A program made the translations under genes and the position numbers. Shown here in pieces: positions 1 to 22,874 of a DNA stretch of 22,874 bases. Under the pieces are notes generated by a model. The model was not told the origin of the DNA. It saw only the letters and a program-made list of their open reading frames with translations, and did not search any database. The number at the start of each line of letters is the position of its first letter. Position 1 is the first letter of the stretch. Location: the IMG/VR virus record IMGVR_UViG_3300029305_007758; one strand, written 5' to 3'. The stretch is from a virus. Taxonomy: Duplodnaviria > Heunggongvirae > Uroviricota > Caudoviricetes.

Positions 1-1
1 G

Positions 2-2428
2 TTTTGTGATATCACGCATGAATTTGGTCATTACGTTTAAGTTTTTGAGTCCTAAAAAGTCGAACTTCAAAAATCCTAACTGACCTTCTGCCTGAATCAT
101 ATCTGCCTGAATTGCAAGTTTTTCCTCTTCATTGGTGCAAATCAGCGGAATATAATCTTCCACACGACCATTTTGAATGGCGATAATGCCTGCTGCATGC
201 TGTCCATATGAAGTAATGTATCCTTCAATCATCTTTGCGTATTCAAAAATACTCATTGCAACTTTATCTTTACTGAATTTTTCAACAATAATGTCTTCAA
301 TTTCAATAAGATGTGAACATTCACGCGCATAACCACGTAAGGATGCACCTGTTGATGCATATGTTCTCGTATCTTCTCCTCTCTCCATCGCATAAAGCTT
401 TGGCGCATATGTTAATGCATTAAGAGGGCCCATGATAGACTTTGTCATGATACCGGCAATTGCCTGTTCACCATATGTTTCTGTGACGTAGTTAATGGCA
501 AACTCACGAGCGAAGCCACTAAAATCAGAATCCACATCAGGCATGGATACTCTTTCTGGGTTTAAGAAACGTTCAAATAATAGATCCAAGTCAATCGGAT
601 CAAGTTCTGTAATACCTGCAAGATAGCAAACTAATGAACCTGCTGCCGATCCACGACCCGGACCAATGTCCATTGCGTTTTCTCTTGCAGCTTTACATTT
701 ACCAAGTACGTCAGCAATGAATAAATGGTACGAAGCAAATCCCATGTTACGAATTGTTTCTAATTCATAATCAAGACGCTTCTGTAACTTATTGTTCCAT
801 TTACTACCGTATCGCATTTCGATACCTGCTTCCGGACATGCAATTTCAATTACTTTGCCATCCATTGTTTCAACAGTTACAAAACCATTAATTGTAAGTT
901 CTCTTAACTTTGCATCAGCATCCTTAAATTCTGGATAATGCTGATTCGGCTTTACCATTTCTTCAGTGATACCTTTTTTCGGATTAGCCTTTGTTTCAGG
1001 CAATCTTGCGTTACATTTCGCAACTATTTCAGCAATGTTTGAAATTGCTTCAACAACCATGTCATCTGGTAGAATCTGAGACAACATTTCTGCTTTCTCA
1101 ATATTTGTTTTGAAATATAACTCGGAATCACTATCAATTGGTCCAGACCACTGTCCTGTTTTGATTCTGGTACAGTTTTTAAGAAGCATTCTTTTCTTTA
1201 AGTCTTCCGGACGTGCCATGTGGTTATCATTTGTTGCAACAAGTTTGATACCATTTGCACGTGCAAGTTTCGCAATCACCGGATAAAGTTCTGCTTCTAA
1301 CGCATCACCATGATACTGAACCTCTGCATAAAAATTACCTGTTCCAAAAATACTTTCATACAACTTAATTGTTTCAGTTGTTTCCATAAGTATTCTTGCT
1401 TCAGATTTTTTCGCTGCATTTAAAGCAGTAATCTTATCAAGATTTGATTCGATTGTCTGTGCTTTTGGTTTGTGTTTTGTTAAAAGCTTTTTATCTTCAG
1501 AAATTGTTGCTTTAAACTCCTGAATCTGTTTCTTTAACTCTGCAACACGTTCTTTTGCATCTTTTGTTTCTGCCATTTCAAGTGCTAATTTTTCTTCCAG
1601 ATAGGTACGAATTGCTTCATCTGGTTCAGCTTTGATATTGGCTTTTGTTTCCTTAAATTTCTTGCCAGCCTTTTCTGCTAATGCTTCAATTTCGGCATTT
1701 AATTCATCGATGCGAGCGTTTACTTTTGCAACCTTTTCTCTTGCCGCAAAATATTCTGCTGGCAATAAACTTTTACTTTTTTCGATACGTTTCTCGATTT
1801 TTTCGATTTCGTGATCGATTTTGTTGTTAAAAGCAAGTGGTGTTGCAAGTACACCACCGATACAAGCACTCATTGCAACAACATTGCCCGAATCCACTGC
1901 ATCTGGTCCAAAACATTCGTATAACAATCGTTCTGTACCAATTGGTCTACCCTTATCGTCTATGTTTCTGTTTGTTGCAGATACATAGCGAGCAATCTGT
2001 TTCATACCTTTGTAATTTTTTGCAATAAGTACTAAATGCTGCGGAATCTCTTTACCCTTAAATACTTCTGCAACAAGTGCATCTGTTTCAGGGTTATCAG
2101 ATTCCATGTCATAGTAACCCATTGTTGTTACATAAGCTTCTACGCCAAGAATTGGTTTGATAGGTGCCTGTTCTTTTGGTAACTTCTTGTGGTCTGATGT
2201 TTCATCACCGTTACAATAGTTGTAAAAATCGAGCCAGTTTACACAGTTACCATGGTCTGTGACAGCACATGCTACTGCACCTTTCTCGATTGCTACATTA
2301 ACTAATTCTGTTACTGACTGTGCACCGTCACCGATACCTATATTTGCATATGCATCTGTGTGACAATGAAGTTCAGTATTCGTTTCGATTGGTAATGATT
2401 CAATCGTTTTTCTTAAGTCTTCTGTCAT
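2..2428 (-). CDS. dnaE: DNA polymerase III alpha subunit (DnaE-type), 3' end runs off the window (~809 aa visible); missing from the ORF track
   Basis: Hand translation from ATG 2428 (RBS AGGAGG at 2435-2440): PHP motifs LHCHT, TDHG, GVEAY, QHLVL, SAC, TNDNH; palm motifs GPGRGSAAGSLVCY, FERFLNPERVSMPDVDSDF, HAAG, KFDFLGL; frame open to the window edge. Confidence 0.97.
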   Translation of the reverse strand, partial: MTEDLRKTIESLPIETNTELHCHTDAYANIGIGDGAQSVTELVNVAIEKGAVACAVTDHGNCVNWLDFYNYCNGDETSDHKKLPKEQAPIKPILGVEAYVTTMGYYDMESDNPETDALVAEVFKGKEIPQHLVLIAKNYKGMKQIARYVSATNRNIDDKGRPIGTERLLYECFGPDAVDSGNVVAMSACIGGVLATPLAFNNKIDHEIEKIEKRIEKSKSLLPAEYFAAREKVAKVNARIDELNAEIEALAEKAGKKFKETKANIKAEPDEAIRTYLEEKLALEMAETKDAKERVAELKKQIQEFKATISEDKKLLTKHKPKAQTIESNLDKITALNAAKKSEARILMETTETIKLYESIFGTGNFYAEVQYHGDALEAELYPVIAKLARANGIKLVATNDNHMARPEDLKKRMLLKNCTRIKTGQWSGPIDSDSELYFKTNIEKAEMLSQILPDDMVVEAISNIAEIVAKCNARLPETKANPKKGITEEMVKPNQHYPEFKDADAKLRELTINGFVTVETMDGKVIEIACPEAGIEMRYGSKWNNKLQKRLDYELETIRNMGFASYHLFIADVLGKCKAARENAMDIGPGRGSAAGSLVCYLAGITELDPIDLDLLFERFLNPERVSMPDVDSDFSGFAREFAINYVTETYGEQAIAGIMTKSIMGPLNALTYAPKLYAMERGEDTRTYASTGASLRGYARECSHLIEIEDIIVEKFSKDKVAMSIFEYAKMIEGYITSYGQHAAGIIAIQNGRVEDYIPLICTNEEEKLAIQADMIQAEGQLGFLKFDFLGLKNLNVMTKFMRDITK

Positions 2429-2467
2429 TGTTTACCTCCTTGAATTATTTGACATATATTTACGAAT

Positions 2468-2477
2468 TAAATATGGT
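2468..2477 (-). promoter_or_regulatory. Class I motif ACCATATTTA upstream of dnaE
   Basis: Exact 10-mer 40 nt before the ATG; one of five exact intergenic copies. Confidence 0.6.
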
Positions 2478-2493
2478 ATGGGACCTTTTGAAA

Positions 2494-2531
2494 CAAAAAA
2501 GCTTGTTTCAATTTTTAACTGAAACAAGCTC
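2494..2531 (-). terminator. Intrinsic terminator after the primase
   Basis: 11-bp stem AGCTTGTTTCA/TGAAACAAGCT followed by a U-tract on the minus strand. Confidence 0.8.
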
Positions 2532-2537
2532 TTTCTT

Positions 2538-3959
2538 TTACAATAATTCTTTTGCTGCAATTTTCGCAAATGCCTCAATATATACGGTACGTTCTTCTTT
2601 TGAAAGTTTTGACACTTTTGAAGCATCAATGCCGGTTTCTTCTTCTGCACCGGAATATGCCATATCAAATACTTCCAAAAAACGTTCAAATGATACAGAT
2701 TTTGTCTCATTTCTGTATCCGGCAAAAATCATATCATCAATCCCTTTTCCATAAATTTCTGGCCAAATAGCAAATGCCACAGTAATATCCGGTCGAAACT
2801 CTGTCACATAAGATGCTAATGCAATTCCTGCTTTGTATACCTGAATATTGTGAATTAAATCTGCGTCATAAAAAACATGTAATGTTTTCAATTTACGACC
2901 AATTTTACGTTCTACATCCATCAGCATTTCAATAATTCCTGCATAGTTATTCACACCTTGTACAGAAAGTGCAATTAACCCTTGTTTTGCAAGAATTTCA
3001 GCTTTAAAACGGCCTTCTGTAATACATATATTGGTACGTTCTGTAATTTTATCAGGAAACACTACATCAATCGGTGTACCACAAGAACCACCACCACGGA
3101 CATATTTTGTAGGAATAAACTCTTTTGAAAAGTACTTGTAACGAAGACCATTTTCATCCTTTTTATCCATACGTACTTGAACTGCAACAATATTGTCATC
3201 CACATCACGAAGTAACATGCCAATTCCGGAATACTGTAATGCAGAATCATCCCAGAATCCATTACTCATAAGCATTTCAAAGAATCCTGGAACGGTATGT
3301 AATTTATCCGCATATTCCGGAAACTGTTTTTTGATTTTAAGAATCAGTGCAACAGTAGCTTTTGGATCAGAAGTTCGCATGGTAAAATAATCTTTTTTAA
3401 TCCGATTATCTGCTAACTGACGTTCGTCTCGTAACTGTCTTTCATGTTCCGGAATTAATTTCCATTCTTTAGCCATGTAAGAATAAATATCTGTCCACAT
3501 TTTAAGTGTTTCCGGCGTTTGTTTTGTTACAGGTAATAACATGGTACGAACATTTGAATTATTTGTTTTTTTGCAAACATATTCAATTTCAGACAGCTCA
3601 TTATATGTATCTTCGTCAATGAGTTCTTCATCCATTGCTACCTGTAATACTGCTTCCTGCCATTCCATATCAAATAAATGCATTGCAGAATTGATAATAT
3701 CGCCACCAGCATTGCAAGCGTAACACCAACAAGAATTCTTTTTTGCATCTACAGAAAAACTGCCAACGTGATTATCCATATGAAATGGACACAATGAGAC
3801 ATAACGACTTCCGCCGCTACGATGAAATCTTGTGCCATAATGTGACAATACATCTACAATGTTTAAATTTTTCACTGCTGCGATAATCATACTCATTTTG
3901 CGAATTGGATCCGTAATTTCTGATTCAAATCCACCAAATGACTCGATAAATGAAATCAT
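2538..3959 (-). CDS. DNA primase-like protein: CHC2 zinc finger plus TOPRIM domain (DUF3854-like); start moved from 4019 to 3959
   Basis: CPFH...SFSV...CYACNAGGD zinc finger; TEGRFKA and YDAD TOPRIM acidic motifs; AGGAGG RBS just upstream of ATG 3959. Confidence 0.88.
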   Translation of the reverse strand: MISFIESFGGFESEITDPIRKMSMIIAAVKNLNIVDVLSHYGTRFHRSGGSRYVSLCPFHMDNHVGSFSVDAKKNSCWCYACNAGGDIINSAMHLFDMEWQEAVLQVAMDEELIDEDTYNELSEIEYVCKKTNNSNVRTMLLPVTKQTPETLKMWTDIYSYMAKEWKLIPEHERQLRDERQLADNRIKKDYFTMRTSDPKATVALILKIKKQFPEYADKLHTVPGFFEMLMSNGFWDDSALQYSGIGMLLRDVDDNIVAVQVRMDKKDENGLRYKYFSKEFIPTKYVRGGGSCGTPIDVVFPDKITERTNICITEGRFKAEILAKQGLIALSVQGVNNYAGIIEMLMDVERKIGRKLKTLHVFYDADLIHNIQVYKAGIALASYVTEFRPDITVAFAIWPEIYGKGIDDMIFAGYRNETKSVSFERFLEVFDMAYSGAEEETGIDASKVSKLSKEERTVYIEAFAKIAAKELL

Positions 3960-3996: not shown

Positions 3997-4006
3997 TAAA
4001 TATGGT
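3997..4006 (-). promoter_or_regulatory. Class I motif ACCATATTTA upstream of the primase
   Basis: Exact 10-mer 38 nt before ATG 3959. Confidence 0.6.
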
Positions 4007-4021: not shown

Positions 4022-4065
4022 AAAAAAAAACACCTGCTACAGAAAAATCTGTAACAAGTGTTTTT
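4022..4065 (-). terminator. Intrinsic terminator after the 1486-aa gene (possibly bidirectional)
   Basis: Minus-strand stem CACTTGTTACAG/CTGTAGCAGGTG followed by a long T run. Confidence 0.8.
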
Positions 4066-4072: not shown

Positions 4073-7000
4073 TTATTCACAATGACCATAAATCCATGTA
4101 TCAAGATTTACATTAGCATTATCACAAACTCTGCTCCAGTTAGTTGTTGAGCCGTTCCAACAATGTGTTGTGTATGGATGGCCATTACATGAAACTCCAA
4201 TAACAAGCGTTCCTGTAGAATCCATTAATGTTTGATAATTATTACATGAACCTGTTGCGGCTGGTGTAATGTCATAGTGCCAATCCCAATGAGTATGCCC
4301 ATTACATGTTGCTGAAATAAATATACCAGATCGACCATTGTATGTTACTTTATTAGTATTATACCAATTCCATTTACTTGCTGATAATGCATCACCATTT
4401 GCAATAGAAATATTGGCATTTTCTAACAATGTTGTAACTCTATCTGTTGTTGTGTCAAATCCATTTGCTGCTAATAATTCAAGAATTTCATTCAGTTCAT
4501 CTTTTGCGTCATTCACATTTTTAATCTTTTGATTTAATGAATAATATTCACTCTTTGATGAAACGTTTGTATATGTACTAACAGCGTAATCAAGTACATT
4601 TATTTTTGATTCAAGGTTATCAATAGCTTTCTTTCTTTTAACAGCCCATTCATCCCAAGTTGATAAATCACTATTTGCACTATAAACCTCACTCATTTTT
4701 GAGCGTGTGTTATTGTTTAAATAATCATAAGCTGCATATTGAGATACTTGACTGCTAAATGTTTTTTGGAACAATACACTTGGCCAACGACCAACGAATG
4801 TATAATACAAATCTTTGTAAGCATCTAAATATGAATCATATTTTTCGTATACATAATCTTTTGCAACAACATCACCGGTTACACTATCATATGTATATTT
4901 TGTTTCTACGGCTCCATTTTCATTTGTTGTGTATTTTTCAAAAACATTATAATATAACAATGATTCTTCTGTGCCGCGATTCTTACTTACTACATAAGCA
5001 TGTGTATAAGCAGTTGATGGTAAAATACCATACTGATCATAGTAACTTAATGTTACATCTAACATTTCTTTCTTAAATGTTTTGCTATGAGCGTCTGTTG
5101 CAATATAAACATTACCATCAAATAACTCTTCTTCATAAAAACCAGAATAGTCAACAGTAATTGTGTTTCCAAAGATATCTTCGTATTCAGTGTATCCTGT
5201 TTCCCATTGTGTACCACGTAGCAAATAAATAAATGCTTTAATATTTGTATCGGTCCACCCACTGAATACACCAGATTGTCCATAAACAGAGTCAATCACA
5301 TATCCGTTTGGACGAACTGTGCCAACAATGTTGTTTGCATCTAAGTTGTCTAAATCATATTTACGAATAGAACCTGTTGAATTATCATAATCTGAACCAG
5401 ACAGGTTCAAATTTCTTGAATAAGCAACAAACTTATTATCACCAATACAAAGCATAGGCACTAATTCTGTTTCAATTATTTTATATCCCACACTACCCAC
5501 TTCATAATCTTTTGGTTCAAAATCTGGTACAACTAAATTACTTTGAACATTTGTTGAATCCGGAACATAAAATGCAATATCTCCCACTTTAAAAGTAAAT
5601 ATAGATGGGGCTTCTTCGTTATACATATGTGCAAGTTCTGAATATACACTTGGTGTTTTTACCCCATGTTTTGCTAATACATAACGGATAAAATCATAAG
5701 ATGAAATCTTATCATAAGACGAAATTTCATTTTCATCCAAAGTATGATTTTTTACATTTGATGTTGTGTCAAAATGTCCTGTTGTAAAGAATGATGTTTC
5801 TGCCATTTCAGCATTAACTGTGACATTAATTGCTGTTTCAAAACCATCTTCGTTCTTTGTTTCTTCATTGAAAATGACATCCGCTGTGTTTGAAAACAGT
5901 AAAATGATATTATTACTATCATAAAATGGTTTGAATGGATCAAACTCATCTACAATTGCATCAATTTCTACAGCACCTTCTACATCAAGATTTGTAGATG
6001 TTGAGCCAGGAATATTTGGTCGCCACACTACTGTATTTAAAGCATTGTAACTATGATTACCTGCTACGGTTGGTACAGCACTACGTAAACTATTTGTTGA
6101 ACCATTTGAATAAACATAATGTTTTCCATTTGCATTGTAAGCAAAAATTTCTGTATGTCCGGACCAACCATAATTTCCTTCGTCATCATATTTATAAGAA
6201 CCATACGTAATGATATCGCCTTCTTGCAACACATTCCATCCGTTCCAACTATATTTTGTAAAACCGGATATACTTGGCGCATTTAATAAGCTTTGTGAAT
6301 TAAAGTTTGTACCAGACGCTGCTGCACCATTTAACCATAGACAAGCAGATACAAATCCGGAACAATCTGTTCTTACCTGATAAACGGTACCATTTACATT
6401 AATTGGAAGATATGTTGTTTGATTATATGTTGCCTGTGTTTGCGCAATAAGTGTTTTAATAGTTCTTACAACATTCATCCAGTCACTATTTACAACTGTA
6501 CCTTTTGGGCAATTTGTTGCATCAATATTTACTTGCCCACCAGAACTACCTGTTGTAACTCCTGCCATTGCTTCATATGCTAACATCTCATCATACTGAA
6601 TATCTACATAAATGTGACATGCATGGCCAACTGATCCGTCCGCATAATAAAAATCATACGGCTCTGTTGTTACAATATGTGTTTGGTCATATAGTTTATC
6701 AACCCAACTTTGTAATTCTGCGTCTGTTACAGTATCAAAGTCAAAATCGCACATAACTTCCACTGCACAAAAGATTTCTTTGTAATTTTCTAACGAACCG
6801 CTCGGATATTGTGTGTCAGTTGTATCATATTGTTTACGAATCTCTGCAATTTCATCCAACATATCATTGTGACTCGTATTTAGTGTTACCATAATTTTCT
6901 CGCCACGATCTTGCAGTTGCGATGACCATTCAGATTCGATGTCCTCACTTATAAATGATTGATTAGCTTGATTTTCATTGATAACATTTCCTAAGAAAAA

Positions 7001-8533
7001 GTTACTTGCTTTATAATTATAATTATACAATGTTTGAATGAAAAGGTCTAAAACTGTAATTATAAGACTTGCTAGTAAAAGAAATACAACCGCAAACATA
7101 AGAATTTTTGCTACTGTTGCGAAAATTTTTGCAACACCTTCTGCAAATTTTTGAAATACCGTTTGCATAGTTTTAATTGCTGTTTTTTCTGCAAATTTTC
7201 CCGTAACTTTTTTTACAGAAGATCCCAATTTTGTTCCAATAAGTTTGTTTTTCAGTTTACCTGTAACCTTTTTTCGTAGCACAGTGTTAATTTCATTTTT
7301 TGTCAACACATGGTCTTTGAGCAATTGACCCCGAAGTTCTAAAATGTCTAATGCGCCTTTTGCAATAGAACTGTTTTTATGAGAATCTATAAATTTCGTC
7401 AAACTTTTAATTGCAAATTTATTTGTATCTTCCGATAATTTTCGTCGCAACAATCTTGATGCAGAATCTTTTCCCCATGGACGAACTTTTGTAGTTCCCC
7501 ATGTCTTTGAAAATGCTTCTGTAGCTTGGTTAAACGCTAAATCCGTTTTTACTCCAGATTTTATAAGTACAGTTGCTTCTTTTTGGATTTTAAAAGTTTT
7601 ATACATTTTAAATCCTGCGGCACTTGAGATATTTCCAGTAAATCGACCGATTGCCATGGCACCGCCCATACCAGCTTCAAGAATGTTCATACCTTGCATA
7701 ACATCAGCACCTTGAAGTGGTGAAGATGCAAGACGAAACATTTGGCGACCCCAAGTTTTTGGATTTGAAAACTTTGCTGATTTGCCTGCTGTGTTTTTAA
7801 GGCGTTCTGTAATCTCTGTACCCTTTTGAAGAAGTGGCAATTCTTTTTTCGCATCAGAAAGCGCTTGTAATTTCAAATCATATATATCTTTTGTTATAAT
7901 GCCATTTTCAAAAGCAACACGAGCTTGATCAAATTCTACTGTTAATAATTCGACTTGCTTTTGTTGCTCTTTTAAACAAGTTGCATAAATTCGATTTAAT
8001 TCGCCAGCATCAACTTTTAAATCAATAAACGAAAATGAATCATTCGCATTTTTTGTAATTATAACACCCTTTTTTTGAAAACTTTCCGGAAGATTTTCAC
8101 AATTCGTTATTTTTACCGTCGTAGACAGACCACCATCTGTATTAAATGTTATATTTGGATTTTTACTTTCTTCTAAAATAACATTTTGCTTATTAAAATA
8201 TTCCTGTAACGCTCTTGGTGTTTGAAGGTGTTCTGTATTTTTAACTAATTCTTTGTATTGTTGTAAATTATAAGCACTTGCACCAGAGTAAATTGCAGAT
8301 CCTACTCCTGTTCCAACTGGTGTCGCAACCCTTGTGGTAGTGCTAATAACTTTCCCAGTTTCTCTATCAGTTGTTTCATTTACACTCTGACGTTCTGCTT
8401 GACGGCTAATTGATGATGATGTTTGTTCTACCATACCTTTTGCAGTAGATACTGTATCAAAACGTTTAAAGTTTCGAAGCATATCCATTCCACAACCCGA
8501 CACACTCATCATTGATTGATTTATTTTTGCCAT
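4073..8533 (-). CDS. Large membrane-anchored cell-wall hydrolase (1486 aa): NlpC/P60-like domain plus degenerate lytic domains; VirB1-like conjugative hydrolase or phage tail lysin
   Basis: Basic N-terminal region; hydrophobic helix ILMFAVVFLLLASLIITVLDLFI; RTDCSGFVSACL...LQEGDII...GHTEIF Cys/His motifs; RBS GAAAGGAG. Confidence 0.72.
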   Translation of the reverse strand: MAKINQSMMSVSGCGMDMLRNFKRFDTVSTAKGMVEQTSSSISRQAERQSVNETTDRETGKVISTTTRVATPVGTGVGSAIYSGASAYNLQQYKELVKNTEHLQTPRALQEYFNKQNVILEESKNPNITFNTDGGLSTTVKITNCENLPESFQKKGVIITKNANDSFSFIDLKVDAGELNRIYATCLKEQQKQVELLTVEFDQARVAFENGIITKDIYDLKLQALSDAKKELPLLQKGTEITERLKNTAGKSAKFSNPKTWGRQMFRLASSPLQGADVMQGMNILEAGMGGAMAIGRFTGNISSAAGFKMYKTFKIQKEATVLIKSGVKTDLAFNQATEAFSKTWGTTKVRPWGKDSASRLLRRKLSEDTNKFAIKSLTKFIDSHKNSSIAKGALDILELRGQLLKDHVLTKNEINTVLRKKVTGKLKNKLIGTKLGSSVKKVTGKFAEKTAIKTMQTVFQKFAEGVAKIFATVAKILMFAVVFLLLASLIITVLDLFIQTLYNYNYKASNFFLGNVINENQANQSFISEDIESEWSSQLQDRGEKIMVTLNTSHNDMLDEIAEIRKQYDTTDTQYPSGSLENYKEIFCAVEVMCDFDFDTVTDAELQSWVDKLYDQTHIVTTEPYDFYYADGSVGHACHIYVDIQYDEMLAYEAMAGVTTGSSGGQVNIDATNCPKGTVVNSDWMNVVRTIKTLIAQTQATYNQTTYLPINVNGTVYQVRTDCSGFVSACLWLNGAAASGTNFNSQSLLNAPSISGFTKYSWNGWNVLQEGDIITYGSYKYDDEGNYGWSGHTEIFAYNANGKHYVYSNGSTNSLRSAVPTVAGNHSYNALNTVVWRPNIPGSTSTNLDVEGAVEIDAIVDEFDPFKPFYDSNNIILLFSNTADVIFNEETKNEDGFETAINVTVNAEMAETSFFTTGHFDTTSNVKNHTLDENEISSYDKISSYDFIRYVLAKHGVKTPSVYSELAHMYNEEAPSIFTFKVGDIAFYVPDSTNVQSNLVVPDFEPKDYEVGSVGYKIIETELVPMLCIGDNKFVAYSRNLNLSGSDYDNSTGSIRKYDLDNLDANNIVGTVRPNGYVIDSVYGQSGVFSGWTDTNIKAFIYLLRGTQWETGYTEYEDIFGNTITVDYSGFYEEELFDGNVYIATDAHSKTFKKEMLDVTLSYYDQYGILPSTAYTHAYVVSKNRGTEESLLYYNVFEKYTTNENGAVETKYTYDSVTGDVVAKDYVYEKYDSYLDAYKDLYYTFVGRWPSVLFQKTFSSQVSQYAAYDYLNNNTRSKMSEVYSANSDLSTWDEWAVKRKKAIDNLESKINVLDYAVSTYTNVSSKSEYYSLNQKIKNVNDAKDELNEILELLAANGFDTTTDRVTTLLENANISIANGDALSASKWNWYNTNKVTYNGRSGIFISATCNGHTHWDWHYDITPAATGSCNNYQTLMDSTGTLVIGVSCNGHPYTTHCWNGSTTNWSRVCDNANVNLDTWIYGHCE

Positions 8534-14481: not shown

Positions 14482-14491
14482 TAAATATGGT
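14482..14491 (-). promoter_or_regulatory. Class I motif ACCATATTTA upstream of the PilZ gene
   Basis: Exact 10-mer 32 nt before ATG 14450. Confidence 0.6.
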
Positions 14492-14542: not shown

Positions 14543-14550
14543 TTTATTTC

Positions 14551-16290
14551 TTATGAATAAAATCCACTACCGCCACTCTGATAATTATTACCAGTTTTCT
14601 TTGTAGCGTTTTTGTTATTTCCATTTAGATACAATTTCTTTGGTTCATTTTTTAAGCGTTCAATAATGAGACTTGCCTGATGTTTGTTTAATTTGTTAAT
14701 TTCAATATCACCCGGGTCAAATCTTGTCTCAGTAAACAATATCCGAATATAATTCTTCTGTGCATCTGATGCCGGACCAGAGCCCCATTCTGCCACAAGA
14801 CGTGAGTCCCATAAAGCTCTGGAATCGACTTCTCTTTTAAGCAAATAATTATACACACCATTAATAATATCCTGCAATGGCATTTTCTTCGTCTTCTTTG
14901 TAACAGGTAATCCATGTTCATCTTTCTCTGTAAAAATAGCACATGTATCACCTAATGCATCGGAACGAGGAATTGTAATTTCTTTACCTTTACCAAGACT
15001 AAGCTTTAACGAATTGTCGCCCATTGGTACAAAGTTAATATCTCGCAAATCAACTTCGTTTTCTTGAGCAAATAATGCAACACGCTTTGCACCATTAATC
15101 CAACTGTCCGGACCATCAAGTAGTACCTCAATTGTTTCTTCCATATCTGTCACTTTGATACCCTGTAACTTTTCTCGTTTCTTTCTTGGTACTGCTTCAA
15201 TATTTAAGCCAAACAAATGTCCAATATTTACTGGTTTTTGTTTTGTAACACCAACACAATCAACAAGTGTTAATGCCTCTTTCCCCGGATATGGACGTAA
15301 TCCACGTCCAACCATCTGTGTATACAAACTCTGATTCTGGGTTGGTCGAGCCATAAGCACTGTTTCAATAAGAGGTATGTCTGTGCCTTCTGAAAACACC
15401 ATTACACTGGTAATACATGGAATTTTTCGTTCTGTAAATCTTTTAATAATCTCTGACCGATTCGGCGTTTCTCCGGTTACAGTTACGGCTCCAGGAATTT
15501 TTGCTGCAATTGCCTGAGCATGTGCAACACTTACTGCAAAAATGAGTGTCTGACCTTTATGATATTTATTATATGCTTCAACTACTGCATCAACACATTC
15601 TGTTTTCATCATTGCATCGGATAAACTTGAAACGTTATAGTCACCCATCTGATTTTTGACTTTACTTAAATTGTATTTTACATCTACTTGATAGCAATCA
15701 ATATCTGTAAGAAAACCTTCTTTGATTCCCCATTTCATGTCACGCATATAAATGATATCTTCATAAATTTTGTGTAAATCAGCTTTATCATTACGATCTG
15801 GTGTTGCAGTGAATCCAATATGAATGCGTGGTTTAAAGTATTCATAAATCTTTTGATACGATGGTGCTGTTGCATGATGCGCTTCATCCGTAATAATCAT
15901 ATCAAATTCATCCGGATGAAACCGTTTTAATCTTCGCACTAATGATTGAACTGACGCAGATACAACTTCCTCACCGTTACTTGATTCCTCTGCTTGTTCT
16001 ACACCGAAACTACAATCATAATACTTTTGAGGCTGATGTACTAATTCGTCACGATGACTAAGAATCAAAACACGGCCACGACGAGGAATGTGAGAAAAAA
16101 TGTATGTTTTACCCACACCTGTGGGTAGCACCACCAAATGCGACCCACCATTACATTTTTCAATCGCTTCAATTGCTTCTTTCTGATAGTAACGCAATGT
16201 CGATTGGTCCGGTATATGCGGTGGATCAAATTTTACCGGCACAAATGATGTTGTAATGTCAACTTCTTTTGTTTTCTTTTTTGTTGCCAT
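14551..16290 (-). CDS. SF2 DEAH-box helicase (Irc3/YejH-like; ResIII plus Helicase_C)
   Basis: LPTGVGKT, IITDEAH, GFTATP, FSEGTDIP, RPTQNQSLYTQMVGRGLR; RBS AAGGAG. Confidence 0.9.
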   Translation of the reverse strand: MATKKKTKEVDITTSFVPVKFDPPHIPDQSTLRYYQKEAIEAIEKCNGGSHLVVLPTGVGKTYIFSHIPRRGRVLILSHRDELVHQPQKYYDCSFGVEQAEESSNGEEVVSASVQSLVRRLKRFHPDEFDMIITDEAHHATAPSYQKIYEYFKPRIHIGFTATPDRNDKADLHKIYEDIIYMRDMKWGIKEGFLTDIDCYQVDVKYNLSKVKNQMGDYNVSSLSDAMMKTECVDAVVEAYNKYHKGQTLIFAVSVAHAQAIAAKIPGAVTVTGETPNRSEIIKRFTERKIPCITSVMVFSEGTDIPLIETVLMARPTQNQSLYTQMVGRGLRPYPGKEALTLVDCVGVTKQKPVNIGHLFGLNIEAVPRKKREKLQGIKVTDMEETIEVLLDGPDSWINGAKRVALFAQENEVDLRDINFVPMGDNSLKLSLGKGKEITIPRSDALGDTCAIFTEKDEHGLPVTKKTKKMPLQDIINGVYNYLLKREVDSRALWDSRLVAEWGSGPASDAQKNYIRILFTETRFDPGDIEINKLNKHQASLIIERLKNEPKKLYLNGNNKNATKKTGNNYQSGGSGFYS

Positions 16291-16420: not shown

Positions 16421-17437
16421 TTATGCTGCAATTTTAATACGTAACACATCTTTACGGCCACACATTGCTTTTAAAAAACCAATTGCATTTACAAATGAAC
16501 TTTCTTCCGGAATGATGATGTCTTCGCCAAATACTTCTTTTACTTCATTTTCAATCATGTTGATTGTTCCACCAATGAATACAAACTGTGTGTAATCAAC
16601 CGGCCACTGTGCCGCACGACAATCATTCATAATGTCTGTAACATAAGTGTTAATATATTTATCAACGATATTTTTTGAATCTTTTTCAATCTGTAAATTT
16701 GGTCTCGTTGGTTTCAAACAACGGTTATCACCGACACGTTTTAATAATTCCATTACATTCTTTTCATTGACACGAGAAAATGCTGCAGATAATTTCTGTG
16801 CCAATCCTGAAATCAACGCTTTTGCACCTTTATCTGTTGTAACAGATGTAAGTGAGTCAATTTCACCTGCATCAAACATTGTCATGTTTACATTTAAGAA
16901 ACCAATATCTACAACACCAACGGTACCGGTTGGGTCTACACCATTTGCAAAAATCGCACCATATGTTTCCGGATATACATATCTGCCAACAATTTTGAAT
17001 TTCTTTGTTACAGGTTCAGATTCACCTGTTAATTTGTATCTCATTTCAATTTCGTCTTCCGGCAAAATAAATTCACGATATTTGTTACGAATCGCTACTT
17101 CCTGATAATCTTTTACCGGAATGCCGATTGCTACATAAACTTCATCGACTTCATCTTCTGAACATTCTCTTGCAATCGCAAATAATGTACTAAGTTTATG
17201 AACAAATGTCTTCTTTGAAGAAATTAATTCTGTACCAATTGTTGCTGCATGGCCAACCTTATACGTATGGCCTTTCATTTCAACAAGATATGTATCTTTC
17301 CCCGGGTCTGTATCTTCAAATGTACCTTCTTCATATTTTGTTTCAAAACTTGCTGTTTTGACGGTTTCTGTTGCAGCATCGTATACTGCTACTTTTGTGT
17401 GTCCTTTACCTGAATCAACTGCAATGTATCTTTTCAT
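16421..17437 (-). CDS. ParM/StbA/Alp-family actin-like segregation ATPase
   Basis: IAVDSGKGHTK (phosphate 1), YVYPETYGA, VGVVDIGFLNVN (phosphate 2), FVFIGGT (adenosine); 338 aa; RBS AAGGAG. Confidence 0.88.
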   Translation of the reverse strand: MKRYIAVDSGKGHTKVAVYDAATETVKTASFETKYEEGTFEDTDPGKDTYLVEMKGHTYKVGHAATIGTELISSKKTFVHKLSTLFAIARECSEDEVDEVYVAIGIPVKDYQEVAIRNKYREFILPEDEIEMRYKLTGESEPVTKKFKIVGRYVYPETYGAIFANGVDPTGTVGVVDIGFLNVNMTMFDAGEIDSLTSVTTDKGAKALISGLAQKLSAAFSRVNEKNVMELLKRVGDNRCLKPTRPNLQIEKDSKNIVDKYINTYVTDIMNDCRAAQWPVDYTQFVFIGGTINMIENEVKEVFGEDIIIPEESSFVNAIGFLKAMCGRKDVLRIKIAA

Positions 17438-17451: not shown

Positions 17452-17826
17452 TTACGCATCCATCTTATCAATTAATGCAAAAAATGGATCTTCTTCTGCT
17501 ACTGTTTTATTTGTTTCAACTAACACTTTTTTTTCTACCTTTTTAGGTTCAGTTTTCTTTGGCGTTGTTTTTGCCGGTTCCAAAACTGGAGCTGACCCCA
17601 CTTTGGTTTTTTCAGTTTCTGTCACAATTGCTTGTTCTGTTACAACTGGAATAACCTGTGCTGTTTGCATCGGAATTGGAATACTCTGAATATTTGTACC
17701 AAACCCATTTTGAATTTCAAGCATTGCCTGTCCACGAAACTGAATATATTCCTGTGGTGTCAATTTTCGTCCGATCAATGTTTCATAATCAGATATCATT
17801 TCTCTTGTCAATTCTGTGATTGTCAT
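17452..17826 (-). CDS. Hypothetical protein, candidate adaptor for the actin-like ATPase
   Basis: Directly upstream of the ParM-like gene; helical N-terminus, Lys/Thr/Pro/Glu-rich linker, C-terminal DPFFALIDKMDA; start overlaps the upstream stop (ATGA/GTGA-type 4-nt overlap). Confidence 0.7.
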   Translation of the reverse strand: MTITELTREMISDYETLIGRKLTPQEYIQFRGQAMLEIQNGFGTNIQSIPIPMQTAQVIPVVTEQAIVTETEKTKVGSAPVLEPAKTTPKKTEPKKVEKKVLVETNKTVAEEDPFFALIDKMDA

Positions 17827-18239
17827 GTTACTTTTGCCTCTTTCTTTACTCGCTTTGGTTTATGAATGTTAAAATATTTTGAAATAGCTTGACATTCAAT
17901 ATCCAAAGTAATTCCATTTCCCAATGTTATCTGTTGCTTCTGAGGTGTCTGAATTTCATATAAAAAACCACTTTCTACTTTTGTAACCTCAAGCACCGGA
18001 CCATTAATGAGTAGATATGCATTACGACCGTCAACAATTGACATTGTAATAGACTGGAGCAACTCTTTTTCGATATGCTTTGTTGATATAATTTTGATTG
18101 TGTCCGCTGTAAGCTGTGACAAAATTGCACTTTCGTCTACAAGACTTAATGTTTCGTTTTCTTTCTGTAACGGATTCTTTGGAACATTTAAATAAAATGT
18201 TGCCATACAATACGTTACTGGCATGTTTTTCTTTGCCAT
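17823..18239 (-). CDS. Hypothetical protein (138 aa), first gene of the three-gene parM-like operon
   Basis: RBS AGAGGTG upstream; its TGA overlaps the next ATG at 17823-17826. Confidence 0.75.
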   Translation of the reverse strand: MAKKNMPVTYCMATFYLNVPKNPLQKENETLSLVDESAILSQLTADTIKIISTKHIEKELLQSITMSIVDGRNAYLLINGPVLEVTKVESGFLYEIQTPQKQQITLGNGITLDIECQAISKYFNIHKPKRVKKEAKVT

Positions 18240-18294: not shown

Positions 18295-18328
18295 AGGTTC
18301 AAAAAATAATGAAACGTAGTAAAAGTTT
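18295..18328 (-). promoter_or_regulatory. Class II motif AAACTTTTACTACGTTT-N11-GAACCT upstream of the parM-like operon
   Basis: Same 17-nt block and spacer as at 13703-13736. Confidence 0.6.
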
Positions 18329-18334: not shown

Positions 18335-18700
18335 TTAAAATTTAATTGTCATTATCGCAAACCATGCAAACGCAATCAGGGCCATTGTAAACAACGGCGT
18401 TCCAATATGATATGTTCTACGACCTAAGTGTTCATTTCTGCTACCATCTTTATTAAACATATTTGTTATACTTGTTTCAGATTTTTTCTGTTTTCTTATA
18501 TTCACAAATGTAATTGCTACATAAAGTGCATTTATAATTAATAACGTTGCAAAAATCCACTCATTGTTCTGTAAATATGTAAGTATGTTTAACCATGTGT
18601 TTTCACTTGTTAAATTATGAACATTATCACGAATGCCGGATGTTAATGGTGTGATAATTTCTGTAATTTCTGTATTTGTTACAATTAAATTTGTTTTCAT
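18335..18700 (-). CDS. Small membrane protein with two predicted transmembrane helices
   Basis: Hydrophobic stretches WIFATLLIINALYVAITFV and LFTMALIAFAWFAIMTI; RBS AAGGAG. Confidence 0.72.
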   Translation of the reverse strand: MKTNLIVTNTEITEIITPLTSGIRDNVHNLTSENTWLNILTYLQNNEWIFATLLIINALYVAITFVNIRKQKKSETSITNMFNKDGSRNEHLGRRTYHIGTPLFTMALIAFAWFAIMTIKF

Positions 18701-18715
18701 GTTTTTCTCCTTTTC

Positions 18716-18751
18716 AAAAAGAAGAGAGCCACAAATTTTGCCGCTCTCTCC
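18716..18751 (-). terminator. Intrinsic terminator after the 439-aa gene
   Basis: Minus-strand GAGAGAGCGGC/GTGGCTCTCTTC followed by TTTTT. Confidence 0.7.
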
Positions 18752-18765
18752 TATATTCGATTTAA

Positions 18766-20085
18766 TTATTCTTCCGAATCAGTTGTTTCTTCTGGCGAAT
18801 GTTTCTCAAATCCTCTTTCCATGAAACACTGCGGACATTCTACAAAATGTGGACCCGGTGCTAAGAATGTAATATCTTCTTCCCATTCATTTGCACAAAA
18901 TGCACATCCCATCTTTACAACTTGATGTACAACCTGTTTCTGAAACTCATTTGTTGCAATATCAAGATTATACAAACGTTCATATAATTCTGTGGAATAA
19001 TCATTTGAAATCTCCATATACATCGAACACCATTGTGTCTTAAATTGATTTGTTTTTAATGTATCAATCATGGTGTTCTTAATATTTGTCCACTGCGAAT
19101 TACATGTACTGGTAATATATTCGATTGTTTTTTCATATTGCTTACGAAGTTCATTTAACAATTCCCAATTTCTTTCGTCTTCTTCTTTTGTTAAATGTTT
19201 TTTAATAATAAGATTTGCATCTTTTTTCTCTTTTAAAACAGGAGCTGGTGGTTCATTTGATTCTGTTTCTTTATTTTCTTCTACAGGCTTTGTATCTACA
19301 GGTTTTGTATTTACAGGTTCTTTTGAAGTCATTCTGTTACGAAATCCTTGTAACATAGCACCTGCTGTTCCATGTTTTGGTTTTGTATCTTCTGTTACCG
19401 TTGCATTTGTTTCAGAAGTTACAACATCTTCTGTTTTTATATGTTTTGTTTCAGAAGTTCCTGTAACAGTAATTGGTTCCACTTCTTTTGTTACTATATC
19501 TTTTGTTTCATCGATCCATGCAAAGTCAATATCCGGATTATATGTATCAGTATCACAATTTTCATAATGTGCAATTAATGTGTTGTTTACAAATTGTTCT
19601 ACGGATACGGTTTTTAATATTTCTTCAATCTTTTTGCCAATATCAGAATTCTGTAACAATTCATTTGTTAATCCTTCAAAACCAAGCATATTCACAATTT
19701 CTGTAAAATCAAATGCTGGGTCCTTATATAATCCAGTTACATCAAATTTGTTACAATCTTTTGACTCGCATGATTTAAAGAAATAAAGACTACCCGGCTG
19801 TCTGATTACATCTTTATCATTTTCAAAATAATATGTTTGTGGAGATGTGGTATTATTCTTATCCCGACATACTTTCTCATTTAACATTAATCCGTTTTCA
19901 GCAAAAAACATTGTCTCCTTTTCAACGCAAAGTTCAATGTCTTTGTCAGAGCCTGTTAATATGATATTTTGTACCAAACCTTTACCGCTACGAATTGTGT
20001 ACACTTTATTAAATGCTGCCAATTGAGGACATACATCTTTACACCAGTCAGCAAGTATTACTGATTCTGTCATTTTGTCTCTCAT
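18766..20085 (-). CDS. Hypothetical protein with low-complexity linker and C-terminal CxxC-CxxC zinc ribbon
   Basis: 439-aa ORF; T/E/K/P-rich middle; CAFC...CPQC near the C-terminus. Confidence 0.8.
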   Translation of the reverse strand: MRDKMTESVILADWCKDVCPQLAAFNKVYTIRSGKGLVQNIILTGSDKDIELCVEKETMFFAENGLMLNEKVCRDKNNTTSPQTYYFENDKDVIRQPGSLYFFKSCESKDCNKFDVTGLYKDPAFDFTEIVNMLGFEGLTNELLQNSDIGKKIEEILKTVSVEQFVNNTLIAHYENCDTDTYNPDIDFAWIDETKDIVTKEVEPITVTGTSETKHIKTEDVVTSETNATVTEDTKPKHGTAGAMLQGFRNRMTSKEPVNTKPVDTKPVEENKETESNEPPAPVLKEKKDANLIIKKHLTKEEDERNWELLNELRKQYEKTIEYITSTCNSQWTNIKNTMIDTLKTNQFKTQWCSMYMEISNDYSTELYERLYNLDIATNEFQKQVVHQVVKMGCAFCANEWEEDITFLAPGPHFVECPQCFMERGFEKHSPEETTDSEE

Positions 20086-20103
20086 GTTTTTCTACCAACT
20101 TTC

Positions 20104-20304
20104 TTATACGATTTCAAAAATATTATTATCAGCTTCACCAACAGCTTCTAATCCACGAATCGCTGTTTTTGCTGCAGCTTCTGTTTTGTATTCTTTTGCT
20201 TCATCAATATCATATGTGTTTTCAAAATGCCCCATCTGTCTTGAGAATGCTTTTACATATCCTGTTTCGCCACTAATTTTGTTTGTCCATTGAATTTTAC
20301 TCAT
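20104..20304 (-). CDS. Small hypothetical protein (66 aa, MSKIQWTNK...; start moved from 20391)
   Basis: GAAAGGA RBS before ATG 20304; the longer ORF call overlaps the upstream gene and the ACCATATTTA motif. Confidence 0.7.
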   Translation of the reverse strand: MSKIQWTNKISGETGYVKAFSRQMGHFENTYDIDEAKEYKTEAAAKTAIRGLEAVGEADNNIFEIV

Positions 20305-20347
20305 GTTAGTATTTCCTTTCATTTTGTATCTTTTTCTTTTTTCACAA

Positions 20348-20357
20348 TAAATATGGT
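20348..20357 (-). promoter_or_regulatory. Class I motif ACCATATTTA upstream of the 66-aa gene
   Basis: Exact 10-mer 44 nt before ATG 20304. Confidence 0.6.
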
Positions 20358-20365
20358 CAAGAGTT

Positions 20366-21151
20366 TTACAAAGTAAAATCTGTTTCGCCAATAAATGAAA
20401 TCGCTTCTTCTGTCATTGGTTTCTTATGTTCCAATAAATAAAGACTATCTAATGGATGACACATTTCTATATTTGCCTCAGTAGCTAATGTTACAAGATC
20501 AATACACTGATCCATTGTTAATTTGTCACAAGGAATAATGATACGAAATACGCCTTTATCCATAAATACATTGATACTTGACATATCAATGTTCAAATTC
20601 TTTGTTTTCTCATAAAACCATGCAACATTTTTTCCTGCATCAGTCTTCATAGATAAATATGAGATTTGCGCCGGAGTTTCTGTAATGTATGATTTTTCGA
20701 TACAGGTGTCACCTATCTGTATAAAATCCGGGACAGAAACATCATTATCTTTTTCTATTTCGTCAACCTTTGATATAGCATCTTCCATAACTTCTTCCAT
20801 ACATGAGATCAAAAAATTGATTTCTTCACAATATGTAACAGACACACTTGCCACATGCATTGCTTGCTCCACTCTTTCTAAAAGTTCAATTTCTTCATTT
20901 AATGTTTCAGTTGTAGCAAATAATGCTAAAATTAAATCTGTTTCAATCACCTCTGATGTATCTAAAAATAGACACAACTCATCATTTTTTCGAATGTTAA
21001 TGAACTCATGCAATTCATCACTCGATTGATACAACATGTTTAAAAATCGGTCACCATTAAATTCATTAACCGAAAATCCTTTATTTTCAAATTCATTTCT
21101 TGAAATTCGAATCGTAAAATGTTCTCCTGTAAAATCAGTAATATTTGGCAT
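20366..21151 (-). CDS. Acidic 261-aa protein, possibly a MecA-family ClpC adaptor
   Basis: N-terminal FTIRISRNEFENKGFS and C-terminal INVFMDKGVFRIII...LATEA...YLLEHKKPMTEEAI resemble the two MecA domains (by eye); acidic helical linker; upstream AAAGGGAG RBS. Confidence 0.5.
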   Translation of the reverse strand: MPNITDFTGEHFTIRISRNEFENKGFSVNEFNGDRFLNMLYQSSDELHEFINIRKNDELCLFLDTSEVIETDLILALFATTETLNEEIELLERVEQAMHVASVSVTYCEEINFLISCMEEVMEDAISKVDEIEKDNDVSVPDFIQIGDTCIEKSYITETPAQISYLSMKTDAGKNVAWFYEKTKNLNIDMSSINVFMDKGVFRIIIPCDKLTMDQCIDLVTLATEANIEMCHPLDSLYLLEHKKPMTEEAISFIGETDFTL

Positions 21152-21211: not shown

Positions 21212-21221
21212 AAGTTTTTTT

Positions 21222-21451
21222 AAGTGTAAAAATGTTATGCAAAATGAAATATGTTTTTCATTTTTATTATTAACAACCCATTATACATGACATTTTTTGC
21301 ACTTAGAGCAGAAAAAGTTATAGTGTGTGCCAATTTTATTTCCGTATCATAACTATAAGTTATAATATGGCTTTTTTTTTGCACTTCCGCCATTAAAGTG
21401 CAAAAATCTTGTTTCCAAGTGCAAAAATGTAACATTAACAAAATTGCACTA
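21222..21451. repeat. Array of AAGTGCAAAAA-type repeats in both orientations
   Basis: Exact 11-mers at 21294-21304 (-), 21376-21386 (-), 21396-21406 (+) and 21417-21427 (+); variants near 21222, 21236, 21324 and 21441. Confidence 0.8.
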
Positions 21452-21465
21452 AAATTAATCTGTTA

Positions 21466-21503
21466 CAAAAACAAAAGAGCCAACATTTCTGTTGACCCCT
21501 CTT
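21466..21503 (-). terminator. Intrinsic terminator after ligA
   Basis: Minus-strand AGAGGGGTCAAC/GTTGGCTCTT followed by TTGTTTTT. Confidence 0.65.
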
Positions 21504-21516
21504 GTTTCATTTTTAA

Positions 21517-22872
21517 TTAAACACCTGCAAGTGTTCTATAATCATCTTCACTGATGATAGCAACGCCAAGTTCCTTTGCCTTCTTGTTCTTACCACTTGT
21601 TGACTCGGTATCATTGTTAATCAAATAATCTGTATTCTTTGATACAGAACCGGATACTTTACCACCAAGTGATTCGATTTCAGCTTTTAATGCATCACGG
21701 TTTGCATAATGATTTACACTACCTGTGATAACAAATGTTTTACCTGCAACACCTGAATCAGAATTATATTCTTTTACATAATCTTCTTTTGTATCAATAA
21801 AAGTTAATTCACCAAGAACTCGCATCTCTGGTGTTGTTTCATTCATACATGCTGGTGCAAGGAATTTATCTTCAATAAATGAAACAAGGTTTGCTGCTAA
21901 AACATCACCGAATCCATTAATTGATGTAAAATCAAATCCTGATTCAACCATCTTTACTAATGAATGGAACAAACTCTTACCTTTGCTATGAGATTCTTCC
22001 CAAGCAATGATTTCTGGTGCAAGCATTTTTGCCTGGCCTTTACCAACCATTGGAATACTTAAGGCAGGTAAGAATTTCACAAATGTTGTCTGCTTGCTTG
22101 ATTTAATTGCATCAATCATGTTTTTGACTGATGTTTCTCCCCAACCTTCGAAACTTGATAATTCAATTACGTTTTCAGATGCATCAACTGGTGTCATTGG
22201 CGATACGAAACCAACCTGATCGTATTCATTTGTCATTAAGTATAAATCATAAATATTTTTGACAAATTCATTTCTTACCAAAAACTCAACTGTTGCTTCA
22301 GACATACCCTGGATATCCATGCATCCTCGTTCACAGAAATGTGTAATGTTACCAATCTGTTTGAAGCTGCATTCACTATTTGGACAAGTTAATAATGTCG
22401 CATTTTCAGTTTCTATAATACGCATATTGCATCCACACTCTGGACATCTTGTTGGAGCATTGTATCTTGCTAATAAATCAACAAGCGACATAGCATTTAC
22501 GTCCACAAGTTTTGCATCATAATTTACTGCTACCTGCGGAATAATCTTGTTAGCCTTAAAGACTGCAATAGTGTCACCAATCTTAATATCTTTCTCAATC
22601 ATCAGTCCCAAATTATGCATTGATGCACGTGTAACTGTAGTTCCTTCAAGTTCTACCGGATCAAATACGACAACCGGTGTAAATGCTCCAGTTCTACCAT
22701 CGGACCAAATGATGTCTCGCACAGTTGTGTCTTCTGTCTCATCTTTCCATTTTAATGCGTATCCGTTCCAAACATGTGGATGGTGACCTGTATCTGGCTG
22801 TACTTTTGCAAGTTCATAATCTTCTAAAGCAATAACCAGACCATCAACCGGATATTCATAAAGTTTTGGATC
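21517..22872 (-). CDS. ligA: NAD-dependent DNA ligase, 5' end runs off the window
   Basis: Frame is open upstream of the track's 22722 start: YPVDGLVI, TGHHP, ALKW; then GRTG..TPV, RASMHN, CPEC/CPNSEC zinc finger, HhH repeats and BRCT (FVITGS...GGKVSGSVSKNTDYLI). Confidence 0.96.
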   Translation of the reverse strand, partial: DPKLYEYPVDGLVIALEDYELAKVQPDTGHHPHVWNGYALKWKDETEDTTVRDIIWSDGRTGAFTPVVVFDPVELEGTTVTRASMHNLGLMIEKDIKIGDTIAVFKANKIIPQVAVNYDAKLVDVNAMSLVDLLARYNAPTRCPECGCNMRIIETENATLLTCPNSECSFKQIGNITHFCERGCMDIQGMSEATVEFLVRNEFVKNIYDLYLMTNEYDQVGFVSPMTPVDASENVIELSSFEGWGETSVKNMIDAIKSSKQTTFVKFLPALSIPMVGKGQAKMLAPEIIAWEESHSKGKSLFHSLVKMVESGFDFTSINGFGDVLAANLVSFIEDKFLAPACMNETTPEMRVLGELTFIDTKEDYVKEYNSDSGVAGKTFVITGSVNHYANRDALKAEIESLGGKVSGSVSKNTDYLINNDTESTSGKNKKAKELGVAIISEDDYRTLAGV

Positions 22873-22874
22873 AA

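Follow-up and report, generated by a model that had tools for sequence, protein, structure and literature searches.

Large plasmids that bring their own DNA polymerase III (Pol III) alpha subunit, primase, helicases, and ligase are present in sequence records and have hardly been studied; known examples include large Bacillota plasmids that encode DnaE, primase, and ParM themselves. In cultured Ruminococcus albus 7, the 420-kb plasmid pRUMAL01 (NC_014824) carries two RecD2-like genes, a hypothetical gene, a CHC2 gene, and a DnaE gene with an insert in its PHP domain; past DnaE, a gene for single-stranded DNA-binding protein (SSB) follows two genes on, and then a Tad locus. Another large Firmicute plasmid, Bacillus subtilis pBS32, is kept at low copy and encodes the AlfA/AlfB partition system, which is actin-like, and a sigma factor of its own that reads plasmid-specific promoters (SigN/ZpdN). 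To our knowledge, pBS32 has no DnaE, primase, or LigA set of its own. The 'Hodor' conjugative megaplasmids span 211-389 kb and combine Rep_3 replication with ParA/ParB, VirB4, VirD4, and sortases (PMC12934698). Here, we analyzed a stretch of 22,874 nt (23 kb) from IMG/VR record IMGVR_UViG_3300029305_007758, hereafter the window, which is part of an element of ~106 kb; our readings rest on the window plus its relatives. An earlier description from the letters alone (the sequence-only reading) had left open whether this is a megaplasmid/chromid or a large phage. The evidence leans toward a plasmid-like element without settling the matter: the window probably forms the backbone for replication, partition, and envelope functions in a ~106-kb, 33% G+C, plasmid-like extrachromosomal element from uncultured gut or rumen Clostridia, and the host is probably a member of the Lachnospiraceae or a relative. 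The window links this element to a distinct DnaE clade that is specific to mobile elements and has pRUMAL01 as its single cultured anchor.

We first consider the origin of the polymerase gene. DnaE (Pol III alpha) is encoded on the minus strand at 2..2428, where the window end cuts the protein to its N-terminal 809 aa, and it matches the Pfam families PHP (E 4e-23) and DNA_pol3_alpha (PF07733, E 6e-63) as well as phrog_405 (E 1.8e-122). Full-length relatives, 1318-1321 aa long, also carry PF17657, PF14579, and PF01336. The PHP domain holds a coiled-coil insert of ~140 aa (window 1390-1820). A protein search recovered ~50 clusters of 1300-1400 aa, 27-52% identical to the window protein, with alignments that cover the insert; because these clusters, pRUMAL01 included, share the insert, it is a clade-wide feature and no peculiarity of the window gene. 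Insert-less DnaEs came next, at 32-35% identity over the core, and the named ones were mostly from Patescibacteria. Chromosomal DnaEs of Lachnospiraceae were 31-40% identical to the window over the core only (289 of 301 species genomes), and the best match in the 301 genomes, at 36%, was another insert-bearing DnaE on a 45.6-kb contig (G157:C15).

In a tree of 78 sequences (FastTree only, with an arbitrary root), the window fell within a 46-member insert-bearing clade with SH-like support of 98. This clade includes pRUMAL01, G157:C15, four IMG/VR contigs, and metagenome contigs, while ten chromosomal Clostridia DnaEs form a separate clade, also with support of 98. The sequence-only reading had proposed such a tree against chromosomal orthologs, and had named as the outcome that would overturn it that the contig is a chromosome and these are the cell's only, vertically inherited dnaE and ligA; DnaE instead lies outside the chromosomal Clostridia clade. 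Judged by its sequence, DnaE is not a host copy.

LigA, the NAD-dependent DNA ligase, lies at the other end of the window (21517..22872, minus strand), which cuts it to its C-terminal 451 aa. It contains DNA_ligase_OB (PF03120, E 2e-23) and BRCT (E 6e-9) domains and matches NF005932 (E 4e-83, profile positions 275-662). It is 31-45% identical to LigA of Lachnospiraceae, and no match in a metagenome scan exceeded 46%; that scan returned only ordinary LigA loci, 37-46% identical, with no shared gene order. In the LigA tree that had likewise been proposed, the window is a long branch whose neighbors are also long branches, and no donor was drawn from it.

Counting these two genes, the window contains 17 plausible genes, all on the minus strand, with a G+C content of 30-38% throughout and a plus-strand GC skew that is negative throughout. 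In the order of transcription, the C-terminal part of LigA is followed by a 365-bp gap (21152-21516) and by genes for proteins of 261, 72, 439, and 121 aa; an operon for a 138-aa, a 124-aa, and an actin-like protein; the superfamily 2 (SF2) helicase, a PilZ protein, an RNase_T-fold protein, and RecD2; an operon for a lipoprotein, an 82-aa protein, and a 1486-aa protein; and finally the primase and the N-terminal part of DnaE. All the genes that the sequence-only reading had named were recovered, in a single orientation. Its remark that chromosomal housekeeping context is lacking also held, as the window has no housekeeping neighbor and no rRNA, and tRNA and Rfam scans of the window returned zero tRNAs and zero Rfam families. 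A 106,235-bp contig carries a protein identical to one from the window. Together with the separate DnaE clade, the divergent LigA, and the private promoter-like motifs described next, this agrees with the earlier view that the DNA belongs to an extrachromosomal or mobile element and not to a chromosome.

Two classes of promoter-like motif organize the window into ~10 short transcription units, and most motif-bearing gaps run from terminator hairpin to motif, ribosome-binding site (RBS), and start codon. Class I, ACCATATTTA, occurs in five exact copies, all on the gene strand and 28-40 nt upstream of start codons. With at most one mismatch allowed, 12 matches were observed, and none of 100 shuffles reached that number. 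Class II, CGTTT-N11-GAMCCT, has four exact gene-strand copies upstream of genes, against a shuffle mean of 0.37. The claim that the element has its own transcription signals is therefore borne out by both classes, in their enrichment over shuffles as in their strand and position. Class I copies on the minus strand lie upstream of dnaE (2468..2477), the primase gene (3997..4006), the envelope operon (10429..10438, with a preceding terminator at 10462-10488), and pilZ (14482..14491, with a terminator upstream at 14509-14545). Class II copies on the same strand lie upstream of recD2 (CGTTT-N11-GACCCT, 12742..12763, with a terminator upstream at 12767-12810), the exonuclease-like gene (13703..13724), and the 138-/124-aa/actin-like operon (18295..18316). 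Two further promoter-like motifs, at 20348-20357 and 21190-21211, accompany the gene block at 18335..21151, and a terminator-like hairpin closes the envelope operon (4026..4065, minus strand).

Motif positions shifted the starts of three open reading frames (ORFs), giving the primase ATG at 3959 (473 aa), the RecD2 ATG at 12707 (737 aa), and the 72-aa ORF at 20104-20322, and these starts agree with gene calls on contigs from other samples. Since both motifs are absent from relatives 48-50% identical, as well as from pRUMAL01, they are private to the element and its near-identical copies and not a property of the wider family. An element-encoded sigma factor would read both classes. The SF2 helicase gene has neither motif in the region before it (16291-16420), where a strong terminator (16312-16340) ends ~20 nt before the start codon; this gene may therefore need read-through from the partition operon.

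The actin-like protein of that operon (338 aa, ALP338; 16421..17437, minus strand) matches ALP_N (PF17989, E 1.5e-10) and, over residues 2-326, the 'partition protein' family phrog_691 (E 4.5e-36), as expected of the ParM-like actin predicted earlier. Homologues on six Bacillota megaplasmid records are annotated as ParM/StbA. Filaments of this protein would push copies of the element apart. Two small genes, encoding 138 aa and then 124 aa with a 4-nt overlap, lie upstream of the actin-like gene and are co-transcribed with it (17452..18239, minus strand); their products are candidate partition adaptors. There is no small gene downstream of the actin-like gene, and the sole repeat array of the window lies 3.8 kb upstream of it, inside the 365-bp gap after ligA. 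The array (21222..21427) consists of four exact copies of AAGTGCAAAAA, two per strand, and one variant, and it contains five of the six AAGTGCAAAAA matches in the window. It is a candidate protein-binding site that could serve as an iteron, a centromere, or an operator. At two metagenome loci (L028:14450-15436 and L023:5152-6138), one of them on a 573-kb contig, a gene for an actin-like protein with 45% identity to ALP338 lies ~3 kb from a LigA gene.

An envelope operon sits within the replication genes. Its lipoprotein, ~503-507 aa (8877..10400, minus strand), has a signal peptide, at least 90% of 43 homologues keep its Cys, and its homologues form 80 clusters on contigs of up to 148 kb. An AlphaFold2 model (mean predicted local distance difference test score [pLDDT] 86) is all-beta, and the last ~90 residues resemble an OB fold (Z 8-10). 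No meaningful match to the main body was found by Foldseek against the PDB or by an atlas search, with template modeling (TM) scores of at most 0.32. The nearest atlas cluster, of 469 aa, is labeled 'LptM family lipoprotein' with members assigned to Uroviricota, at TM 0.23-0.32 only. The 82-aa ORF that follows (8557..8805, minus strand) is the weakest gene call because it has no family match and is not called in L271, a relative discussed below.

The 1486-aa product of the third gene (4073..8533, minus strand) consists of a helical N-terminal region, one membrane span (a hydrophobic stretch at ~470-500), a CHAP/NlpC-P60 domain at ~680-842, a long stretch that is conserved and rich in beta structure, and a C-terminus rich in Cys and His. 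No match was obtained for this protein in Pfam, PHROG, or NCBIfam at E 0.01, PF00877 and PF05257 included; tblastn against plasmids and phages also gave none, and phmmer against PDB sequences gave chance matches only. Its homologues form only three clusters among 5.8 billion proteins searched. A model of residues 545-1000 had a mean pLDDT of 41, rising to 59-82 over the region of the Cys helix and His strand, and the domain aligned to ~20 CHAP/NlpC-P60 chains with Z of 8-10.9 and a root-mean-square deviation of 3.0-4.0 Å over 117-136 residues. Its neighbors in a protein language model were CHAP/NlpC_P60 clusters (0.92), and Cys724 (DCSG) and His793 (GHTE) are invariant in all three homologues. 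The NlpC/P60 identity thus appears to hold by fold, as modeled. With no profile match, the membrane-anchored NlpC/P60 hydrolase of the sequence-only reading is supported by this fold, by the Cys724/His793 pair, and by the single membrane span, and the protein is predicted to be anchored with its N-terminus inside and its C-terminus outside. The last ~80 residues (window 4073-4400) carry repeated CNGH/GHC motifs, kept in all three homologues, which suggests a metal-binding or disulfide-rich module. The conserved-Cys lipoprotein and the internal membrane anchor suggest proteins made for the host cell surface and not a virion-type layout. The operon would cut peptidoglycan locally for a surface structure, such as a pilus or a transfer apparatus.

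The remaining replication genes provide part of a fork. The primase (473 aa; 2538..3959, minus strand) combines a CHC2 zinc finger (PF01807, E 2e-16) with DUF3854 (E 4e-9), a Toprim-like domain of mobile-element primases; the canonical Toprim and DnaB-binding domains of DnaG were not detected in it. Its start was placed at ATG 3959 because of the motif at 3997-4006, the RBS, and a 472-aa homologue in L271. The RecD2-type SF1B helicase (737 aa; 10494..12707, minus strand) has HHH_RecD2, AAA_30, and UvrD_C_2 domains and is best called RecD2-like, slightly under equivalog level, because it scores 466 bits against TIGR01448, for which the cut-off is 500. The SF2 helicase (579 aa; 14551..16290, minus strand) has ResIII and Helicase_C domains and matches phrog_16 (E 2e-85) and a RadD-like profile (1e-43).

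A 274-aa protein with a DEDD fold (12827..13651, minus strand; RNase_T PF00929, E 1.2e-12) corresponds to the 'epsilon-like protein' of the sequence-only reading. The fold stands, and the DEDDh catalytic residues are missing, making this a pseudo-epsilon. In Exo I, a Lys replaces the first Asp (IKIDTTG; KxD for DxE), and a 38%-identical relative has the same Lys (IKLETTG); the canonical Exo II (NxxxFD) and Exo III (HxxxxD) motifs are not present in the protein. From these residues, it is predicted to be catalytically dead and is more likely to be structural. In DnaE, nine PHP metal ligands (H21, H23, D34, H59, E97, H131, C189, D401, and H403) are invariant among 11 clade members, as is the catalytic motif PDIDTD (D631, D633, and D635). 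Since the PHP ligands and PDIDTD are kept and the epsilon-like protein is predicted to be dead and more likely structural, proofreading would probably be performed by the PHP domain of DnaE.

The sequence-only reading had gone further and proposed an autonomous replisome with its own replication fork. This is overstated because the window lacks genes for a sliding clamp, a clamp loader, a DnaB-type helicase, SSB, and an initiator, and because its epsilon-like protein is without catalytic residues. Instead, the polymerase core, the primase, the accessory helicases, and a ligase to seal nicks would be supplied by the element, and the host or genes located beyond the window would provide the clamp, its loader, SSB, and perhaps the helicase at the fork. 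Replication without host proteins goes beyond the data for this element.

A megablast of the whole window against phages and against plasmids gave no match, and exact 40-mer scans of viral and genome contigs gave none. Parts of this backbone recur elsewhere. L271 has RecD2, lipoprotein, P60, primase, and DnaE in the same order as the window, at 70, 70, 51, 73, and 79% identity, respectively. RecD2, lipoprotein, and P60 are kept on a contig of GCA_963613435.1 at 39, 51, and 32% identity; this contig (50 of 55.6 kb viewed) encodes a topoisomerase, HNH, an actin-like protein (ALP), HipA_C, PARP, a primase, a sigma-70-type gene, a split DnaE, HD, an SF2 helicase, a pseudo-exonuclease, RecD2, the lipoprotein, and a P60 homologue. 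A 96.8-kb ENA contig (44 kb viewed), with a DnaE 48% identical to that of the window, encodes UvrD, PhoH, EAL/GGDEF, PARP, a topoisomerase, HipA, PemK/SocA, AbiEii, a Tad-type locus (T2SSE and RcpC), and an ALP. Together, the ~94 kb viewed in these two relatives include toxin-antitoxin and actin-like genes and have a plasmid-like content. In G157:C15 (L256-L258, 45.6 kb), a contig from the bin of a Lachnospiraceae species genome, genes for a SecY paralogue, an SbcC-like ATPase, RecD2, the insert-bearing DnaE, SSB, an uncharacterized 1441-aa protein, and two ATPases (TadZ-like and T2SSE) are arranged as in pRUMAL01.

Two genes of the GCA_963613435.1 relative depart from those of the window. Its dnaE is divided between two ORFs, one of 595 aa and one of 707 aa, that lie ~540 nt apart (L273:1-4435), and its SF2 helicase (L273:6675-8930) has an in-frame insert of ~155 aa compared with that of the window. 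An intron, intein, or homing element could account for either feature.

A large temperate or 'plasmidial' phage is the alternative that best withstands these data, and we consider it possible, if somewhat unlikely. The element would then be an episomal prophage kept at low copy by the actin-like protein, with the window as its replication module and the P60 protein as a virion-associated lysin or a tape-measure-like protein. Plasmidial phages of C. difficile, of the phiCD211/phiCD5763 type and ~130 kb in size, share a repertoire of Pol III alpha, zinc-finger primase, helicase, exonuclease, ligases, a parM-like gene, and addiction modules (PMC5786514), and gut 'NAD-jumbo phages' combine LigA and replication genes with NAD salvage and PARP (PMC11662467), the latter also carried by relatives of the element. 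The strong PHROG matches of the replication genes, the CHAP domains known from structure matches in phage tail and baseplate proteins, and the filing of DnaE-clade relatives in IMG/VR favor the same explanation, and strict co-orientation and private promoters are typical of phages too. Further points weigh against a plasmid-like element: profile scans of the window found no relaxase, VirB4-type ATPase, type IV coupling protein (T4CP), or Rep initiator; the relatives used are only 32-79% identical, with contigs partly covered; and the ~83 kb of the element outside the window may hold virion or type IV secretion system (T4SS) genes.

What argues against a phage is the lack of a virion signature wherever sequence was available. 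Profile scans found no terminase, portal, or major capsid gene in the window, and no Pfam virion family was found in 94 kb of the GCA_963613435.1 and ENA contigs. Ten GCA_963613435.1 ORFs without a family match, the largest included, had no match to a structural PHROG. In the four IMG/VR relatives of the DnaE clade, TerL_ATPase, Terminase_6N, Phage_portal, and Phage_capsid gave no match, yet the two that are circular (199 kb, L169; 244 kb, L237) have two T2SSE ATPases each, and one has an ALP gene; these two records may be plasmids filed as phages. A search for T4SS genes in relatives returned T2SSE ATPases plus sub-threshold AAA_10 matches only. ALP338 had no match at E 1e-5 among 50,697 phage records, and the 1023-aa DnaE of phiCD211 lacks the insert, with identity of only 23-28% in short stretches. 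The P60 gene, moreover, is co-transcribed with the lipoprotein gene inside the replication block and does not lie in a structural module.

That the window instead comes from an integrative element (an integrative and conjugative element or a genomic island) or from a chromid segment in a chromosome, and not from a free replicon, is improbable. One DnaE-clade relative (G306) is classed as a provirus in an isolate genome, and G157:C15, with its SecY paralogue, falls in the bin of a Lachnospiraceae genome. However, the window has no integrase, tRNA, or att-like feature, actin-like partition and a polymerase of its own are features of an episome, the nearest anchored relative, pRUMAL01, is a free plasmid, and the contig is 106 kb long, with lipoprotein-family relatives on contigs of up to ~150 kb. 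An ordinary chromosome with the cell's own, vertically inherited dnaE and ligA can be set aside as very improbable: its LigA is closest to that of Clostridia/Lachnospiraceae (38-45% identity), but DnaE lies outside the chromosomal Clostridia clade at 31-40% identity across 301 Lachnospiraceae genomes, housekeeping neighbors, tRNA, and rRNA are missing, private promoters stand where a sigma-70 consensus would be expected, and an ALP partition gene is present.

A plasmid-like element thus remains the preferred explanation, and its backbone of RecD2, lipoprotein, P60, primase, DnaE, SF2 helicase, and pseudo-exonuclease allows such elements, at present unnamed or filed as viruses, to be recognized in metagenomes. 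Much more speculative, and doubtful in our view, is the proposal that they form a family of autonomous elements of ~100-150 kb, widespread in gut and rumen Clostridia, that are neither recognizable tailed phages nor classical T4SS plasmids. Its proposed markers are the lipoprotein clusters, at least 80 in number, and the ~50 insert-bearing DnaE clusters. If the family were real, its core would comprise the PHP-insert DnaE, a dead epsilon-like partner, a RecD2 that replaces a DnaB-type helicase, and a membrane-spanning lipoprotein/P60 complex in the replication block, and this layout would hint at envelope-tethered replication or DNA transfer, perhaps via the Tad-type pili that recur beside the DnaE clade. 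The window raises the questions of whether PHP proofreading makes up for a dead epsilon, which helicase acts at the fork, and why a peptidoglycan hydrolase operon lies amid replication genes.

The window has further genes. The PilZ-domain protein (222 aa; 13782..14450, minus strand; Pfam E 8e-11) has intact RRSFR (RxxxR) and DISLNG (DxSxxG) motifs. The block of 261-, 72- (20104-20322), 439-, and 121-aa genes (18335..21151, minus strand) has identical copies in other metagenomes, and none of the four proteins matched Pfam, PHROG, or PADLOC. The 439-aa protein ends in a zinc-ribbon-like Cys cluster, and the 121-aa protein is a membrane protein. The N-terminus of the 261-aa protein (20366-21151) resembles the start of MecA-type ClpC adaptors, a likeness with no profile match behind it. 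We also considered a defense island and rejected it, as the PADLOC matches in the window were to generic helicase and exonuclease domains with partial coverage.

Among the known systems, pRUMAL01 is the nearest anchored relative. It shares with the window adjoining RecD2-like, CHC2, and ~1350-aa DnaE genes with the PHP insert, membership in the same DnaE clade, and a host among rumen Clostridia. It is, however, four times larger, its DnaE is 31% identical, and beside its DnaE lie an SSB gene and a Tad locus, neither of which is in the window. The 29 kb of pRUMAL01 inspected contained no homologue of the lipoprotein/P60 operon, LigA, or ALP338, and the promoter motifs of the window are absent from pRUMAL01. 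The 414-kb plasmid CP139434 of Brevibacillus halotolerans similarly brings together CHC2, an AAA ATPase, dnaE, ParM/StbA, and PemK in one region, whereas its ParM and DnaE are each 28% identical to those of the window, its DnaE is shorter, and its gene orientation is mixed. The Hodor megaplasmids are likewise plasmids of uncultured gut Bacillota found in Logan/ENA assemblies, with ParM/StbA and a conserved surface-associated module (PMC12934698). Membership in that family was rejected, as Hodor elements rely on Rep_3/ParAB and a T4SS, and DnaE and Pol III go unmentioned in their description (PMC12934698). phiCD211/phiCD5763 resemble the element as ~130-kb circular episomes of Clostridia that carry the gene repertoire given above (PMC5786514), but their terminase, portal, capsid, tail, and lysis modules are evident, and their ParM is not detectably similar to ALP338. 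Set beside these systems, the present element is distinguished by a conserved envelope operon within its replication block and by its pseudo-exonuclease.

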